NCBI RefSeq assembly: GCF_054482595.1
Contig: NZ_CM137008.1
Strand: one strand, 5' to 3'
DNA: 64,000 nt
In this document: positions 3,072 through 9,554 of the stretch, one piece after another
Layout of the letters: each line of letters opens with the position of its first letter
Position numbering within the stretch: position 1 is the first letter of the stretch
Program-made: the position numbers and the translations under genes
The notes under the pieces: model-generated
What the model was told of the DNA's origin: nothing
What the model saw: the letters and a program-made list of their open reading frames with translations, nothing else
Database searches by the model: none

Positions 3072-5606
3072 TTAATTACTACCAAACATATCTTTAATCC
3101 AACCGGCTACACCGTCGCTGTCTTTCTGCTCTTGCTGAGCAGGTTGCTGTTGCGGCTGTTGCTGCGGCTGAGAAGACTGATCAAACGGATTGCCTGACGG
3201 CTGCTGCTGCATCTCACTCTGCTGGCACAGCGATTGCGGATCGCTGGTCCAGACCGGCAAGACACGCATGCCACCGCTGCAAACAAAGTTGCCGTCGTAG
3301 TCCACGCCCATATCTGCAATATCTTCTGGCGGAACAAGATTCAGCGGCGTTGGCGTCTGGTTAGCCAGATAACGCTGATAAATCGACATTGCCCCGCTGG
3401 CACCATACAGTTTGGTCGGCTGGTTGTTATCACGGCCGACCCAGGTGATGGTCACCGTGCTGCCGTCAATGCCCGCAAACCAGGTATCTACGTTATTGTT
3501 GGTAGTCCCTGTTTTCCCTGCCAGATGCAGGTTCGGGTATTTCGCCCCAAGCTGACGACCCGTACCACGTTGTACCACCTGCTGCATGGTCCATAGTGTC
3601 AGATACGCCGCCTGCGCCGGAACAGCGCGTTCCGCCTGCGGGAAGCTCTGATACAGCACTTTGCCATCTTCCGCGATTACCGAACGCAGCGCAGAAAGCG
3701 GTGCACGGTTACCACCGCTGGCGATGGTCTGGAATGCCTGCGCCACTTCGATTGGCGTTAAGTTCAACGCCCCCAGCAGCATTGCCGGAACCGGATGCAA
3801 CTGATCTTTCGGTACGCCCAGTTTGATCCAGGTATCCGTAACCGCAGGCAGCCCCAGCGCCATCCCCAGATTTACCGTCGGCACGTTCATCGAACGGGTC
3901 AACGCATCCACCAGCATCACTCTGCCGCTTTCGCTATAACGACGGTCATCATTCTGCGGTGACCAGACCTGGCCATTCGGCTGACGCAGCGCAATTGGCG
4001 CATCCGCAATCCACGTATTCAGACGATAGATTTTCGGCTGGCTTAAGGCCGTCAGATAAGTCGCTGGTTTTGCAAGGGAACCAATCGAACGACGCGCCTG
4101 CATCGCACGGTTGTAGCCCGCAAACTGCGGCTCAGAACCTCCGACCATCGCACGAACTTCACCACTAAAGCGGTCGACGACCACAATCGCGGTTTCCAGA
4201 TCGCTCAGCTTACGCTGTTTCTTAAGTGCCGGAATGCCTTCCACGGCGGCTTTTTCTGCCGCGTCCTGGGCCACCGAGTCAAAGGTAGTGAAGATCTTCA
4301 CGCCGGAGAGATCTTTTACCTTATCGCCTAATTTAGCCTGAAGCTCCTGACGCACCAGTTGCATAAAGGCTGGCTGAGGAGAGATCACCCCACCGCGCGG
4401 CTGAACACCCAGCGGACGCGCACTCAACATGTCATAGAGTTCTTGATCAATAATCTGTTGCTGTTGCAGCAGACGCAGTACCAGATTACGTCGCTCCAGC
4501 GCCAGTTTCGGGTTACGCCACGGGTTGTAGATGGACGCTCCTTTCACCATACCGACTAACAGCGCCTGCTGATCGAGGCTCAATTCTTCTACCGGGCGAC
4601 CAAAGTAATACAAGCTCGCCAGCGGGAAGCCGCGGATTTCGTTGTCGCCGCTCTGACCGAGATACACCTCGTTCATATACAGCTCAAGAATACGGTCTTT
4701 GCTGTAACGCGCGTCCATGATCAGCGCCATGTAGGCTTCATTCGCTTTACGCCAGTAAGAGCGCTCGCTGGAGAGGAACAGGTTTTTCACCAGCTGCTGC
4801 GTCAGCGTACTCGCCCCCTGCACCGTTCGACCTGCGGTCAGGTTTGCCAGCACCGCACGTCCGATGGAGTAGAGACTGATCCCATCATGCTCGTAGAAAT
4901 GACGGTCTTCTGTCGCCAGCAAAGTATCCACCAGCAAATCCGGGAAACCACTGCGCGGCACAAACAAACGCTGCTCACCGTTTGGTGAGGAGATCATGGT
5001 GATCAGACGCGGATCAAGACGGAAGAAACCGAACTGACGGTTGTTCTCCATATTGACGATGGTCGCCAGATGATCGCCATCAAAGGTCAGACGCGCACGC
5101 ACCTGCCCTTCTTTGCTGTCCGGGAAATCAAACGGACGGCGGATCATCTCAATGCTGTTAGCCTGCACAGTAAATTCGCCAGGACGGGTCATTTTCGACA
5201 CCTGACGATACTGGGTTGCCTCCAGCAGCTTCACCATTTCGTTCTTGCTGATGGTCATGTCTGGCTCAAGGTTGACCATTCGGCCATAAACTGCCGCAGG
5301 CAGTTGCCAGACCTTGCCATCAATACGGCTGCGAATTTTTTGATCGAGATAAACGCCGTAAATGGCGATCAGCACGGCAAAAACGATAGCCAGTTTTAAC
5401 AGCAGCCATAGCCAGCCGCGTTTGCCACGAGGCTTACGCCCTTTGCCTTTGCCCTTACCTTTGCGCGGCATCGGTTCTTCATCCTCATAGTCATCATAAT
5501 CGTCGTAATCATCGTCATCTTCGTAACGACGACGGCTTACCTTTTGTTTGACCGGACGCGTCGGTTTCCCTTTGCGTCCAATTGGCTCGCGGTCATTCCC
5601 GGCCAT
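3072..5606 (-). CDS. mrcB: Bifunctional penicillin-binding protein 1B (glycosyltransferase/transpeptidase)
   Basis: ORF-track 849 aa; start trimmed to [13 protein letters not shown] (844 aa); contains the STLTQQ glycosyltransferase motif and transpeptidase domain; acidic [15 protein letters not shown] then [11 protein letters not shown]-terminal segment. Confidence 0.93.
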
Positions 5607-5704
5607 GCTTTTTCTCCGCAATATTCAGGCGCAAAAGCCCGATTTTCTGTTCTTCTGTTACAAGACAGAAGAAGATATCTCTCAAAATTTGAGCTCGATC
5701 GGTC

Positions 5705-5789
5705 CCCTCTCCCTTAAGGGAGAGGGTTAGGGTGAGGGTGAACGTGCGCGCTGATGCCCTCACCCCGGCCCTCTCCCACAGGGAGAGGG
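5705..5789. repeat. Array of three GC-rich hairpins (stems ccctctccc/gggagaggg, gggtgaggg/ccctcaccc, ccctctccc/gggagaggg) between hrpB stop and mrcB start
   Basis: Read directly: ccctctccc-ttaa-gggagaggg; gggtgaggg-N18-ccctcaccc; ccctctccc-aca-gggagaggg. Starts about 13 nt after the hrpB stop. Likely terminator or intergenic repeat element. Confidence 0.5.
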
Positions 5790-5801
5790 AGAAAACCAAC
5801 C

Positions 5802-8231
5802 TTACGAATACTTTTTCGTCCGTCGCGTCGGTGCCGTGTTTGCCGGGTCGTCCGGCCAGACGTGTTTGGGATAACGCCCTTTCATCTCTTTTTGCACCTC
5901 ACGATACGCCCCTTTCCAGAAGGCCCCCAAATCACGCGTGATTTGCAGCGGCCTTTGGGCAGGTGAAAGCAATTCCAGCACCAGCGGCACGCGCCCCTGG
6001 GCGATCGTCGGATTGGTGGCCTCACCAAACATCTCCTGCATTCTCACCGCCAGCGCGGGCGGGTTATCTTCATGATAACGAATGGCGATCCGGCTTCCCG
6101 TCGGCACAGTGTAATGCGCAGGCAATTCACTATCCAGACGTTGCTGCATTCCCCAATCAAGTAATCCGCGTAGTGCCTGATAAATGTCGAGTGATTTCAG
6201 GCCGCGTAGTGAATGTACACCGGCCATATGTGGCAGCAGCCACGTTTCCAGCGTCGCCAACAAACTTTCATCATCAACCGCTGGCCAGTCATATTCTGGC
6301 AACCACTTTCCGGCGCATAACAAACGCAAGCGTAGCTGTTCCGCTTCCGCCGTCCAGTTGAGCACGCTTAAACCTTTATCACGGATGCCGTTAAGCATCG
6401 CCTGATGCAACTCGTCTTCTGACGGTTTCGCCAACGGCTGCACTTTCACCGTCAACTGACCGATTTGCAGCCGACGCCAGGCTTTCAGTGTACCTTGCGC
6501 GTCATCCCATTCCACGGTGTCAGATTGCTGCACCAGCTGCGGACTGCGTCGCACTAATTCATCAATATCGACCGGTAACGCCAGTAAAATCCGCGCATCC
6601 GGCGAGGCGCTGCCCTGCAATAATAACGGTGCGATCAACCATTCGTGGCGGCTTAGCGCGTCGTCGGCATCGAGCATCGCCCCCATGCCGTTTGCCAGTT
6701 GATAGCGTCCATCTTGCCCACGGCGGCGAGCAATGCGATCGGCAAACGCCCCGGCAAGTAGCGGCGCGATAAGCGAACTGTCTGCCTCACCGCCGCGTAC
6801 GTTTAAGCGTTTTAACAGTTGCTGACTACGTTGCTGCCAGGCTGGTTGATTGCGCGAAAACGCCACGCCCAGGTCACTATTGCCCATCCGTGGCGGCTCT
6901 TCGAGAATGGCGGCAATTTTTGCCGCGGTAGCAGCTTCGTCGTCGCTCTTTGCGCTAACCAGCATTGCCGCTAAACGCGGATCGTTACCCAGCGCTGCCA
7001 TTTTTTGCCCCTGCGCACTAAGCCGTTCACCGTCCAGCGCCCCCAGCATCTTTAACAGGCGTTTCGCGGCCAGTAAATTCACTGCTGGCGGTTGATCCAG
7101 CCAGCTCATCTGCGCTGGATCGCTGCATCCCCATTGCAGTAATTCCATCAGCAAACCGGAAAGATCGCTTTGTAATATTTCCGGTTCACTTTGCGCCGCG
7201 GCGCGTTCTGCTTGTTCCTTGGCGATTAAATGCTGGCAGATACCCGACTCCAGACGCCCGGCGCGCCCGGCACGCTGCGTCATGGATGCCTGGCTAACGC
7301 GTTGAGTAATCAGTCGCGTAAGCCCCGTGCGCGGATCAAAACGCGCCACACGCTCCTGGGCACAATCCACCACCAGACGAATACCTTCAATGGTTAAACT
7401 GGTTTCAGCAATATTGGTCGCCAGCACCACTTTGCGCATCCCTTGCGGTGCCGGGAGGATCGCTTTTCGCTGATCGTTCAGCGACAACGCGCCATACAGC
7501 GGGCAGAGCAACACATCACTGCCGATGCGCGAAGCCAGTTGTTCCTGCACACGCTGAATTTCTCCGACGCCCGGTAAAAATAACAGTAATGATCCGCTTT
7601 CCTGACGCAGCATTTCGGCGGTAGCAACCGCGACGGCTTCGTCAAAACGCTGATGCGCGGGCAACGGAAAATAGCGGCGCTCAACCGGAAACGAGCGCCC
7701 TTCTGAGATGACGACGGGCGCTTCTGGTAGCATTTGTTGCAAGCGGTCGTTGTCCAGCGTAGCTGACATAATCAGCAGTTTAAGGTCATCGCGCAGGCCT
7801 TGTTGCACGTCTAGTAACAACGCCAGCGCCAAATCCGCCTGCAAGCTGCGTTCATGGAATTCATCGAGAATCACCAGCCCAACACCGCTCAGTTCCGGGT
7901 CACGCTGGATCATCCGCGTCAGCACGCCTTCGGTAACCACTTCCAGGCGGGTATTTGGCCCGACGCAGTTTTGCGCACGCATCCGGTAGCCAACGGTATC
8001 GCCTGGCTTTTCGTTAAGCAGCTCCGCCAGCCGTTGCGCGACGTTACGCGCCGCCAGACGACGCGGCTCCAGCAGGATAATTTTCCCGTTAATGCCGGGA
8101 TGCGCCAGCAGTTGCAGCGGCAGCCAGGTTGATTTCCCGGCCCCGGTCGGCGCACTTAATAATACCTGCGGCGCACAATCGAGAGCGGTAAGTAATTCAG
8201 GTAAGACGGCAGCAACGGGCAACGACGACAC
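5802..8231 (-). CDS. hrpB: ATP-dependent RNA helicase HrpB (DEAH-box)
   Basis: ORF-track 824 aa; trimmed to GTG start giving 809 aa beginning (M)SSLPVAAVLPELL; motifs APTGAGKST and DEFHER. Confidence 0.85.
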   Translation of the reverse strand: MSSLPVAAVLPELLTALDCAPQVLLSAPTGAGKSTWLPLQLLAHPGINGKIILLEPRRLAARNVAQRLAELLNEKPGDTVGYRMRAQNCVGPNTRLEVVTEGVLTRMIQRDPELSGVGLVILDEFHERSLQADLALALLLDVQQGLRDDLKLLIMSATLDNDRLQQMLPEAPVVISEGRSFPVERRYFPLPAHQRFDEAVAVATAEMLRQESGSLLLFLPGVGEIQRVQEQLASRIGSDVLLCPLYGALSLNDQRKAILPAPQGMRKVVLATNIAETSLTIEGIRLVVDCAQERVARFDPRTGLTRLITQRVSQASMTQRAGRAGRLESGICQHLIAKEQAERAAAQSEPEILQSDLSGLLMELLQWGCSDPAQMSWLDQPPAVNLLAAKRLLKMLGALDGERLSAQGQKMAALGNDPRLAAMLVSAKSDDEAATAAKIAAILEEPPRMGNSDLGVAFSRNQPAWQQRSQQLLKRLNVRGGEADSSLIAPLLAGAFADRIARRRGQDGRYQLANGMGAMLDADDALSRHEWLIAPLLLQGSASPDARILLALPVDIDELVRRSPQLVQQSDTVEWDDAQGTLKAWRRLQIGQLTVKVQPLAKPSEDELHQAMLNGIRDKGLSVLNWTAEAEQLRLRLLCAGKWLPEYDWPAVDDESLLATLETWLLPHMAGVHSLRGLKSLDIYQALRGLLDWGMQQRLDSELPAHYTVPTGSRIAIRYHEDNPPALAVRMQEMFGEATNPTIAQGRVPLVLELLSPAQRPLQITRDLGAFWKGAYREVQKEMKGRYPKHVWPDDPANTAPTRRTKKYS

Positions 8232-8304: not shown

Positions 8305-9554
<1,250 letters not shown>

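Follow-up and report, generated by a model that had tools for sequence, protein, structure and literature searches.

The window, a 64,000-nucleotide stretch of contig NZ_CM137008.1 (assembly GCF_054482595.1), carries on its minus strand, at positions 3072-5606, the E. coli mrcB (ponB) gene, whose 844 codons plus stop encode the alpha isoform of PBP1b (844 aa), a major peptidoglycan synthase and β-lactam target. The identity proposed for this gene from the sequence alone is borne out by the open reading frame, by the Pfam domains of the product and by the RefSeq annotation of the identical locus in E. coli strain XH990; the mrcB DNA, 100% identical to that of XH990, occurs in 5424 of the 5426 complete E. 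coli genomes. RefSeq uses the same ATG (5604-5606) as start codon, and a GGAG Shine-Dalgarno core for the alpha isoform can be read 7 nt upstream of it (5614-5617, minus strand); the TTG at 5621, listed as a possible mrcB start, is a product of the mechanics of ORF listing. A scan of 5560-5860 for promoters and terminators found none, and a scan of 5400-5900 against Rfam at permissive E-values linked neither the tail-coding region nor the upstream intergenic repeat to a known RNA family, the matches that it returned (miRNA models, for example) being chance hairpins that scored far under the gathering thresholds.

The product has the complete architecture of its family. PBP1_TM (PF14812) matches residues 1-79 (E 3.8e-25, model positions 1-85 of 85), and in this curated family, from which the present protein does not differ, the tail and the membrane helix are already united. 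UB2H (PF14814), the LpoB-binding domain that separates the membrane helix from the glycosyltransferase domain, occupies residues 113-197 (E 1.7e-25), and PDB entry 6fzk matches residues 107-200. The Transgly (PF00912, E 2.7e-56) and Transpeptidase (PF00905, E 2.1e-24) domains follow on one and the same chain. The neighbours at the 100%-identical RefSeq locus are arranged as fhuC, fhuA, mrcB, hrpB, thpR, sfsA and dksA, an order that agrees with the hrpB-mrcB-fhuACDB context of E. coli. By every one of these features, of domain and of context, the protein is PBP1b/MrcB, a class A PBP with a UB2H domain.

Charge blocks of the cytoplasmic tail

PBP1b starts with a charged, disordered cytoplasmic segment, in which the sequence-only reading had remarked an acidic Asp/Tyr run followed by a Lys/Gly-rich basic run before the membrane helix. 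Both strings are present in the minus-strand translation of 5340-5621, the acidic run corresponding to residues 28-44 and the K/G-rich string to residues 49-64, which adjoin the helix, and the segment is indeed the cytoplasmic tail that precedes it. The interval originally assigned to these features, 5460-5606, contains the start ATG, the acidic run and Met46, but it comprises exactly codons 1-49 and stops one residue into the K/G run, which reaches 5415 and is thus mostly cut off. On the minus strand, the tail opens with a conserved N-terminal peptide (codons 1-14, 5565-5606), which ortholog conservation and published work (PMC13423804) implicate in FtsA binding, and continues with a first basic block (codons 15-27, 5526-5564; net charge +7 over residues 14-27) and with the acidic D/E/Y block, which belongs to the alpha isoform only (codons 28-44, 5475-5525; net charge -13). 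Then come the ATG of Met46 (5469-5471), a mostly conserved in-frame codon that coincides with a published Ribo-RET peak and starts the gamma isoform, a juxtamembrane basic K/G/R block shared by both isoforms (codons 47-64, 5415-5468; net charge +10 over residues 45-64), and a hydrophobic transmembrane anchor (codons 65-87, 5346-5414), recognised from the sequence and from Pfam PBP1_TM, the limits of the helix being approximate.

Both runs exceed what chance would produce, as judged against the 844-aa protein shuffled 20,000 times, the best window of each shuffle being retained: the best 17-residue window holds 13 D/E (shuffle maximum 11), and the best 18-residue window holds 16 K/R/G (shuffle maximum 15); K and R counted alone reach 10 in 18 residues, inside the shuffle range (maximum 12).

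The alignment across Enterobacteriaceae that had been suggested as a check for length variation is already published (PMC13423804), and we have repeated it here with 80 Enterobacteriaceae genome loci and more distant fragments, which provided 81 distinct sequences and 77 distinct tails; the 80 genomes share kinship, and the counts that follow are not independent. Residues M1, A2, G3, D5, R6, E7, P8, I9, G10 and R11 are invariant in the 81 sequences, either N or D occurs at position 4, and there is slight variation at positions 12-14. An acidic block is present in every one of the 77 tails, with a length of 10-32 aa and a net charge of -9 to -23, and its position is constant despite the turnover of its sequence, over a range that spans Escherichia and Yersinia-, Serratia- and Providencia-like sequences. 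The basic blocks on either side differ little in charge (~+8 each), the juxtamembrane one measuring 14-28 aa with 6-10 K/R. What has been conserved in both runs over the 80 genomes is composition and not sequence. In addition, the acidic block retains 1-4 aromatic residues (2-4 in 70 of the 77 tails), which hints at something more than a pure charge spacer.

Both runs also vary in length inside E. coli. Tandem Repeats Finder detected imperfect repeats of period 9 (4 copies, 5491-5526) and of period 6 (4.2 copies, 5440-5464), and about 4 of 60 genomes, a sample spread over the 5424, are length variants, two lacking 3 nt, one 6 nt and one 9 nt; the sequenced variants have lost one GAT, one AAAGGC, or both. 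The length variation of both runs would be explained by slippage, because short DNA repeats such as these may occasionally gain or lose one unit.

Two isoforms and the internal start

The production of PBP1b isoforms from alternative in-frame starts, stated in the sequence-only reading, is classical knowledge: Met1 gives alpha and Met46 gives gamma, seen as protein bands of 94.2 and 88.9 kDa (PMC13423804). The initiation profiling that had been proposed to map the internal start also exists, Ribo-RET having located it both in E. coli (10.1101/520783) and in Salmonella (PMC11005335). By contrast, the opinion that the role of the tail is not well defined is outdated, since Navarro, Vettiger et al. 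(Nat Microbiol 2026; PMC13423804) have published a division-site role in which the alpha-specific N-terminus is required for midcell enrichment and septum fortification. The same study reports the conservation of the first 14 aa (it cites Chalut et al. 2001 for the first six residues) and an interaction of the tail with FtsA that involves R6, for which its authors want further biochemical validation.

The system described here (same gene, residues 1-64, Met46 start, conserved first 14 residues) does not differ in kind from that one. The tail couples periplasmic PBP1b to the cytoplasmic division machinery, and both this coupling and the two-isoform design were already published; the tail finding is genuine but ordinary, and by itself brings nothing new. 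What we contribute are modest additions, namely an unstructured GAGGA stretch, the losses of repeat units in E. coli, a phosphotyrosine listing and a C-terminal motif. The published study gives the acidic block no role (a text search gave no hit for 'acidic' or 'negatively charged'), and it is next to that study that the RNA-level data and the indel polymorphism stand as small additions. Together with infB and clpB, mrcB is one of three reference cases in which an in-frame ATG placed after a Shine-Dalgarno-like element generates an N-terminally shorter isoform (10.1101/520783); in mrcB, the codons of a low-complexity acidic run would provide the ribosome-binding region, and no part of the mRNA is less structured than this run. 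A disordered cytoplasmic extension of a bitopic aPBP, with a short motif or a modification site by which the periplasmic synthase is coupled to the division or growth machinery of the cytoplasm, is known as well from the Firmicute aPBPs, whose tails bind GpsB (as cited in PMC13423804), whereas the probable partner of the PBP1b tail is FtsA and its sequence is unrelated to theirs.

At the RNA level, ATG46 is an in-frame start in accessible mRNA (MFE ~-1 versus a mean of -12), with a Shine-Dalgarno-like GAGGA core upstream (codons E41-D42, 5482-5486, minus strand). In most species GAGGA ends, as it does here, 10 nt before the internal ATG, a distance at the long end of the usual spacings. The internal ATG is present in 70 of the 81 distinct sequences, 7 of the others having a nearby GTG and 4 having no candidate; all 11 sequences that lack the ATG retain the acidic block, which therefore does not exist solely for the gamma start. 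A GAGG or GGAG core occurs in 69 of the 70 orthologs with an internal ATG, compared with 56.6 expected from synonymous recoding, and the Glu codons at -5 and -3 are GAG in 61/65 and GAA in 45/51 orthologs, respectively. Since the amino-acid sequence alone yields a Shine-Dalgarno-like core in ~81% of the recodings, selection acting specifically on the RNA before Met46 is suggested by this excess rather than demonstrated. Moreover, the synonymous-site entropy upstream of Met46 is no outlier in the codon alignment of the 81 sequences (ranks 0.12, 0.30 and 0.49 among 97 two-fold sites), and we therefore report an excess at the level of the motif only.

Among the 862 windows of 50 nt over the mrcB mRNA, the seven least structured all lie at nt 81-148, from the acidic-run codons to ATG46, with MFEs of -0.3 to -1.4 kcal/mol versus a mean of -12.2 (sd 3.5). 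Across 69 orthologs, windows that end at the internal ATG have a mean of -1.9, versus -13.3 for the background, and in 93% of the orthologs this window is less structured than every background window sampled. The acidic-run codons probably serve at the same time as ribosome-binding site for gamma.

Possible roles of the acidic block

The account that we favour, and that we consider fairly probable as a whole, combines a tail made of charge blocks, two isoforms, an acidic block acting both as spacer and as RNA element, and slippage. The tail is a series: 14-residue peptide, basic block (~+7), acidic Asp/Glu/Tyr block (-13), Met46, basic Lys/Gly/Arg block (+10) and membrane helix, with one mRNA giving rise to two proteins, alpha, which starts at Met1 and carries the full tail, and gamma, which starts at Met46 and keeps the juxtamembrane basic block only. 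The alpha-only part, shown in the literature to recruit PBP1b to the division site, probably does so through the binding of FtsA by its first ~14 residues. The FtsA complex of PBP1b is covered by published AF-multimer work. As a protein, the acidic block would be a flexible, length-tolerant and negatively charged spacer, which the anionic membrane would repel, and the FtsA-binding peptide would in this way be kept off the bilayer and off the juxtamembrane basic block, a putative stand-off role. As RNA, its GAY, GAR and TAY codons would form a nearly unstructured, purine-rich stretch containing GAGGA, which would let ribosomes begin translation at ATG46. The juxtamembrane K/G block, for its part, is probably the positive-inside, membrane-proximal segment required by both isoforms.

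The strong segregation of charge in the tail (+7 / -13 / +10) is also consistent with an electrostatic hairpin, in which the acidic block would fold onto the flanking basic blocks and, in alpha, mask the juxtamembrane K/G block, so that alpha would differ from gamma in how it contacts the membrane or lipids, in dimerisation or in activity. However, a charge-matched clamp of this kind predicts a positive covariation, and across the 77 distinct tails the acidic and juxtamembrane basic charges are instead negatively correlated (rho -0.31), the net charge of the tail ranging from -8 to +8 and the acidic charge varying 2.5-fold while each basic block remains at ~+8. The negative correlation has led us to downgrade the hairpin, which we regard as unlikely, and to favour the spacer.

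The imperfect tandem repeats present in the DNA, the in-frame loss of units inside E. coli and the differences in length between genera would suit runs that are functionally neutral, low-complexity filler, generated by replication slippage and tolerated in a disordered tail. This is an improbable reading nonetheless: an acidic block with a net charge of at least -9 lies at the same place in 77 of 77 distinct tails, few E. coli genomes are length variants (4 of the 60 sampled), and a function has been demonstrated for the alpha-only segment (PMC13423804).

Neither do we give much credence to the Asp/Tyr run being an alpha-specific, multi-site phosphotyrosine cluster (Y28, Y34, Y37 and Y40), in which Etk, Wzc or some other kinase would add negative charge and thereby tune the conformation of the tail, FtsA binding or the choice of partner. 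In its favour, Table S1 of a 2013 study of EHEC O157:H7 (PMC3681748) has entries for four singly phosphorylated forms of one 23-residue PBP1b peptide, whose phosphotyrosines stand at peptide positions 3, 9, 12 and 15 and correspond to all four tyrosines of the run; two of the PBP1b sites are classed there under the enriched motifs pYD and KxxxxxpY. Within the acidic block, the columns that hold Tyr rank among the better conserved (70 of 77 tails have 2-4 aromatics), and a phosphorylated aPBP cytoplasmic tail has a precedent in mycobacterial PonA1, for which regulation by tail phosphorylation is reported (PMC4483258); PBP1b, in contrast, has only a proteomic listing, and the two sequences are unrelated. 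The listing itself comes from a single large-scale, antibody-enrichment dataset without known stoichiometry, in a paper whose main text does not discuss PBP1b and among whose listed pTyr entries the K-12 accession NP_414691 was not found (PMC3681748), and localising sites among four tyrosines of a repetitive acidic peptide is difficult. Furthermore, Tyr itself, as opposed to any aromatic, is not conserved at the run sites in the Pantoea-like fragments, which have Phe in its place (DDFDNDDFDDE in P0020, DDFDDDY in P0018), nor in the Providencia-like ones, which mix Leu, Phe and Ile into the acidic block; given these replacements, it is the aromatic or hydrophobic character, not a phosphorylatable hydroxyl, that seems to be conserved. 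In the literature searched, coverage of which was incomplete, we found no dedicated study of PBP1b tyrosine phosphorylation and no follow-up of the listing. The further proposal that such a four-Tyr, alpha-specific cluster controls the strength or timing of the FtsA-mediated recruitment of PBP1b to the divisome is very improbable, and would, if true, mean that septal wall fortification in E. coli is switched by a kinase from the cytoplasmic side.

The entries of the same EHEC dataset also include FtsZ Y371 as a pTyr (PMC3681748); this residue sits inside the C-terminal region of FtsZ, which competes for the same FtsA site as PBP1b.

The C-terminus of PBP1b

A Gln/Pro-rich C-terminus had been noticed in PBP1b too, and the 12-residue string quoted for it is present at residues 816-827 (3126-3161). 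Its best 20-residue window contains 14 Q/P, compared with a maximum of 12 in 20,000 shuffles. This string forms the end of a Q/P-rich periplasmic linker (codons 795-827, 3126-3224, minus strand), variable in length among 77 orthologs, that is followed by a terminal motif (codons 830-844, 3075-3119, minus strand) conserved in the 77 full-length orthologs, all of which read SDGVAGWIK[DE]MFG plus 1-2 variable last residues. From the comparison of orthologs, the Q/P-rich C-terminus is a linker of variable length, closed by an invariant motif of 15 residues. We found no dedicated study of this C-terminal tail in the literature searched, whose coverage was incomplete, and the residues past 804 are missing from every solved construct of PBP1b. 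The terminal motif has a sub-threshold match to Pfam FtsA_C (E 0.0014, 20 bits versus a cut-off of 27.4). The conserved peptide may be a second tethered motif, placed at the opposite end of the protein.

A documented protein and its charged tail

The open reading frame at 3072-5606 (minus strand, 844 residues) is mrcB (ponB), encoding PBP1b, as follows from its Pfam domains (PBP1_TM at residues 1-79, UB2H, Transgly and Transpeptidase), from the 100% identity to E. coli strain XH990 of the 401 bp over the tail-coding region (5300-5700), found in 5424 of 5426 complete E. coli genomes, and from the annotated neighbours (fhuC-fhuA-mrcB-hrpB, plus thpR-sfsA-dksA). RefSeq starts the gene at ATG 5604-5606; a TTG start at 5621 was a purely mechanical ORF-list call.

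The acidic and Lys/Gly strings that the sequence-only reading quoted from the N-terminus occur literally in the translation, as does the Gln/Pro-rich string that it quoted from the C-terminus. The coordinates it gave for the two N-terminal runs, 5460-5606, correspond to codons 1-49: they hold the acidic run (5475-5525, minus) and Met46 (5469-5471, minus) but end at the first Lys of the K/G run, whose remainder extends to 5415 on the same strand. None of 20,000 shuffles of the PBP1b protein matched the 13 D/E observed in 17 residues (shuffle maximum 11), the 16 K/R/G in 18 (15) or the 14 Q/P in 20 (12); K/R alone, 10 in 18 residues, was unexceptional. Block charges along the tail are +1 (residues 1-13), +7 (14-27), -13 (28-44) and +10 (45-64), and the DNA of both runs consists of imperfect tandem repeats, with periods of 9 and 6. 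In 60 rows taken at even steps through the 5424 E. coli genomes, tail length equalled the reference in 56, and was shorter by 3 nt in two, by 6 nt in one and by 9 nt in one; sequenced variants (ortholog locus L004, for example) had lost one GAT from the Asp run, one AAAGGC from the Lys-Gly run, or both. Such whole-unit, in-frame changes, confined to a small minority of genomes, are typical of slippage.

Much of what surrounds this tail is already known from the literature, namely the isoforms, the internal start and an alpha-only tail function. As the sequence-only reading stated, PBP1b is made as isoforms from alternative starts; E. coli has two, alpha from Met1 and gamma from Met46. The initiation profiling that the reading proposed exists: the mrcB internal start was one of three reference cases recovered in E. 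coli by retapamulin-assisted ribosome profiling (Ribo-RET; 10.1101/520783), and was also seen in Salmonella, where the extension is 42 residues long and its authors explicitly describe a basic stretch and, after it, an acidic one (PMC11005335). [quoted passage not shown] The same study reports conservation of the first 14 residues within Enterobacteriaceae and predicted disorder of the tail, credits the importance of the first six residues to Chalut et al. 2001, and does not treat the acidic block specifically. All solved PBP1b structures start at residue 53, 55 or 58 and stop at 804; neither tail is visible in any of them. The reading is a correct description of a well-studied protein. Three kb from mrcB lies sfsA (8850-9554, plus strand), whose internal start was experimentally validated according to the Ribo-RET preprint (10.1101/520783); internal initiation is therefore documented for two genes of the window.

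The acidic block across orthologs

We compared 80 genome loci from named Enterobacteriaceae and further N-terminal fragments from Erwinia, Pantoea, Yersinia, Serratia, Providencia and Sodalis-like sources. The architecture is constant: an N-terminal peptide (MAG[ND]DREPIGRKG), an RRR-type basic patch, an acidic D/E block with aromatic residues, P-M-P-[RK]-K, a K/G/R block and the membrane helix. Length does vary, the acidic block spanning 10 to 32 residues, with a net charge of -9 to -23 and one to four aromatic residues, and the basic block on either side keeps a charge close to +8. P0087, a 39%-identical homolog, has a tail that is basic only, in line with published work confining the N-terminal peptide to Enterobacteriaceae.

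Acidic and basic block charges show no positive covariation across these orthologs (rho -0.31), and net tail charge runs from -8 to +8. Both results speak against a charge-matched intramolecular clamp and for a spacer that tolerates changes in length, or else a fuzzy acidic-aromatic element. A more novel reading, phosphotyrosine signalling by the Asp/Tyr run, has a low probability. Table S1 of an E. coli phosphotyrosine proteome bears directly on it, listing four singly phosphorylated forms of one PBP1b peptide from EHEC O157:H7, corresponding to Y28, Y34, Y37 and Y40, two of them assigned to enriched motifs (PMC3681748). However, this is a single enrichment dataset that gives no occupancy, localisation is hard within so repetitive a peptide, and Pantoea-like orthologs carry Phe instead of Tyr; PBP1b is not discussed in the main text of that paper, nor mentioned in any of the 15 top-ranked matches of our search of the tyrosine phosphorylation literature. 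Table S2 of the proteome also lists FtsZ Y339 and Y371; the second of these falls within KEPDYLDIPA, close to the C-terminus of FtsZ, and this part of FtsZ and the PBP1b N-terminal peptide are competitors for FtsA.

The internal start and its messenger

An ATG occupies the P-M-P position in 70 of 81 distinct sequences; of the rest, seven offer a GTG a few codons away at most and four offer no candidate, which suggests that gamma may not be universal. The acidic block is retained in every sequence that lacks the internal ATG, and so is not there for gamma only. Four loci (L060, L068, L078 and L080, from Pseudescherichia vulneris, Phytobacter diazotrophicus and other Enterobacteriaceae) lack an ATG, GTG or TTG where gamma would start, retain both the N-terminal peptide and the acidic block, and may be alpha-only producers.

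Upstream of the E. coli internal start lies a Shine-Dalgarno-like core, GAGGA (5482-5486, minus; codons E41-D42), ending 10 nt from the internal ATG in most species and 4 or 7 nt in some. A GAGG/GGAG core at -21 to -4 was present in 69 of 70 sequences, where recoding these peptides by the gene's own codon usage gives an expectation of 56.6; the acidic peptide alone thus yields such a core in about 81% of recodings. Of the Glu codons at -5, 61 of 65 are GAG, whereas of those at -3, 45 of 51 are GAA. Selection at the RNA level is plausible, and we grade it no higher because a column-wise synonymous-entropy test upstream of the internal start gave no outlier and the genomes are not independent.

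Across the whole E. coli mrcB transcript (862 windows of 50 nt), the seven least-structured windows all fall at nt 81-148, the acidic-run codons through ATG46 inclusive, with MFE between -0.3 and -1.4 kcal/mol, where the mean is -12.2 (sd 3.5). Over 69 orthologs, MFE averaged -1.9 for the window that ends at the internal ATG and -13.3 for the background, and in 93% of them the former was less structured than all background windows sampled. The structure is weak because GAY, GAR and TAY codons offer almost no C to pair. An internal initiation site requires an unstructured, purine-rich stretch and a Shine-Dalgarno-like core; given both, we propose that the acidic run would double as the ribosome-binding region of gamma.

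The stretch also contains a 40-codon ORF, out of frame with mrcB (5396-5518, minus), with seven ATG codons. These ATGs arise at GAT-GA and TAT-GA codon junctions within the acidic run. Since they share the unstructured, Shine-Dalgarno-rich stretch with the start of gamma, they could be decoys for initiation.

The C-terminus and an intergenic repeat

"Gln/Pro-rich" proved accurate for residues 795-827 (3126-3224, minus), a stretch of variable length among 77 full-length orthologs, but is less specific than what the alignment indicates, a variable linker followed by a conserved terminal peptide. SDGVAGWIK[DE]MFG plus one or two variable last residues (3075-3119, minus) is kept in 77/77 full-length Enterobacteriaceae orthologs, with a second conserved motif, GNPF, upstream. 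A short amphipathic helix would be compatible with the W-I-x-x-M-F spacing. The FtsA C-terminal Pfam model (FtsA_C) matched residues 800-843 below threshold (E 0.0014, 20 bits against a cut-off of 27.4). No PDB construct reaches the terminal peptide, all of them stopping at 804, and searches on it returned no literature. One Citrobacter amalonaticus mrcB (L039, AUH_CA_2023_1) is cut short at 618 codons and has an aberrant C-terminal sequence, probably through a frameshift or assembly error; that of another C. amalonaticus genome (L006) is full-length, at 843 codons.

Between hrpB and mrcB lies a palindromic GGGAGAGGG/CCCTCTCCC-rich element (5695-5795), whose 21-nt inverted arms lie at 5718-5738 and 5757-5777; it has no RefSeq annotation and matched no Rfam family. 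It is a dispersed repeat: E. coli genomes carry it at a median of 10 places and at 25 at most, and a full-length copy is absent from the best-matching place in about one genome in five.
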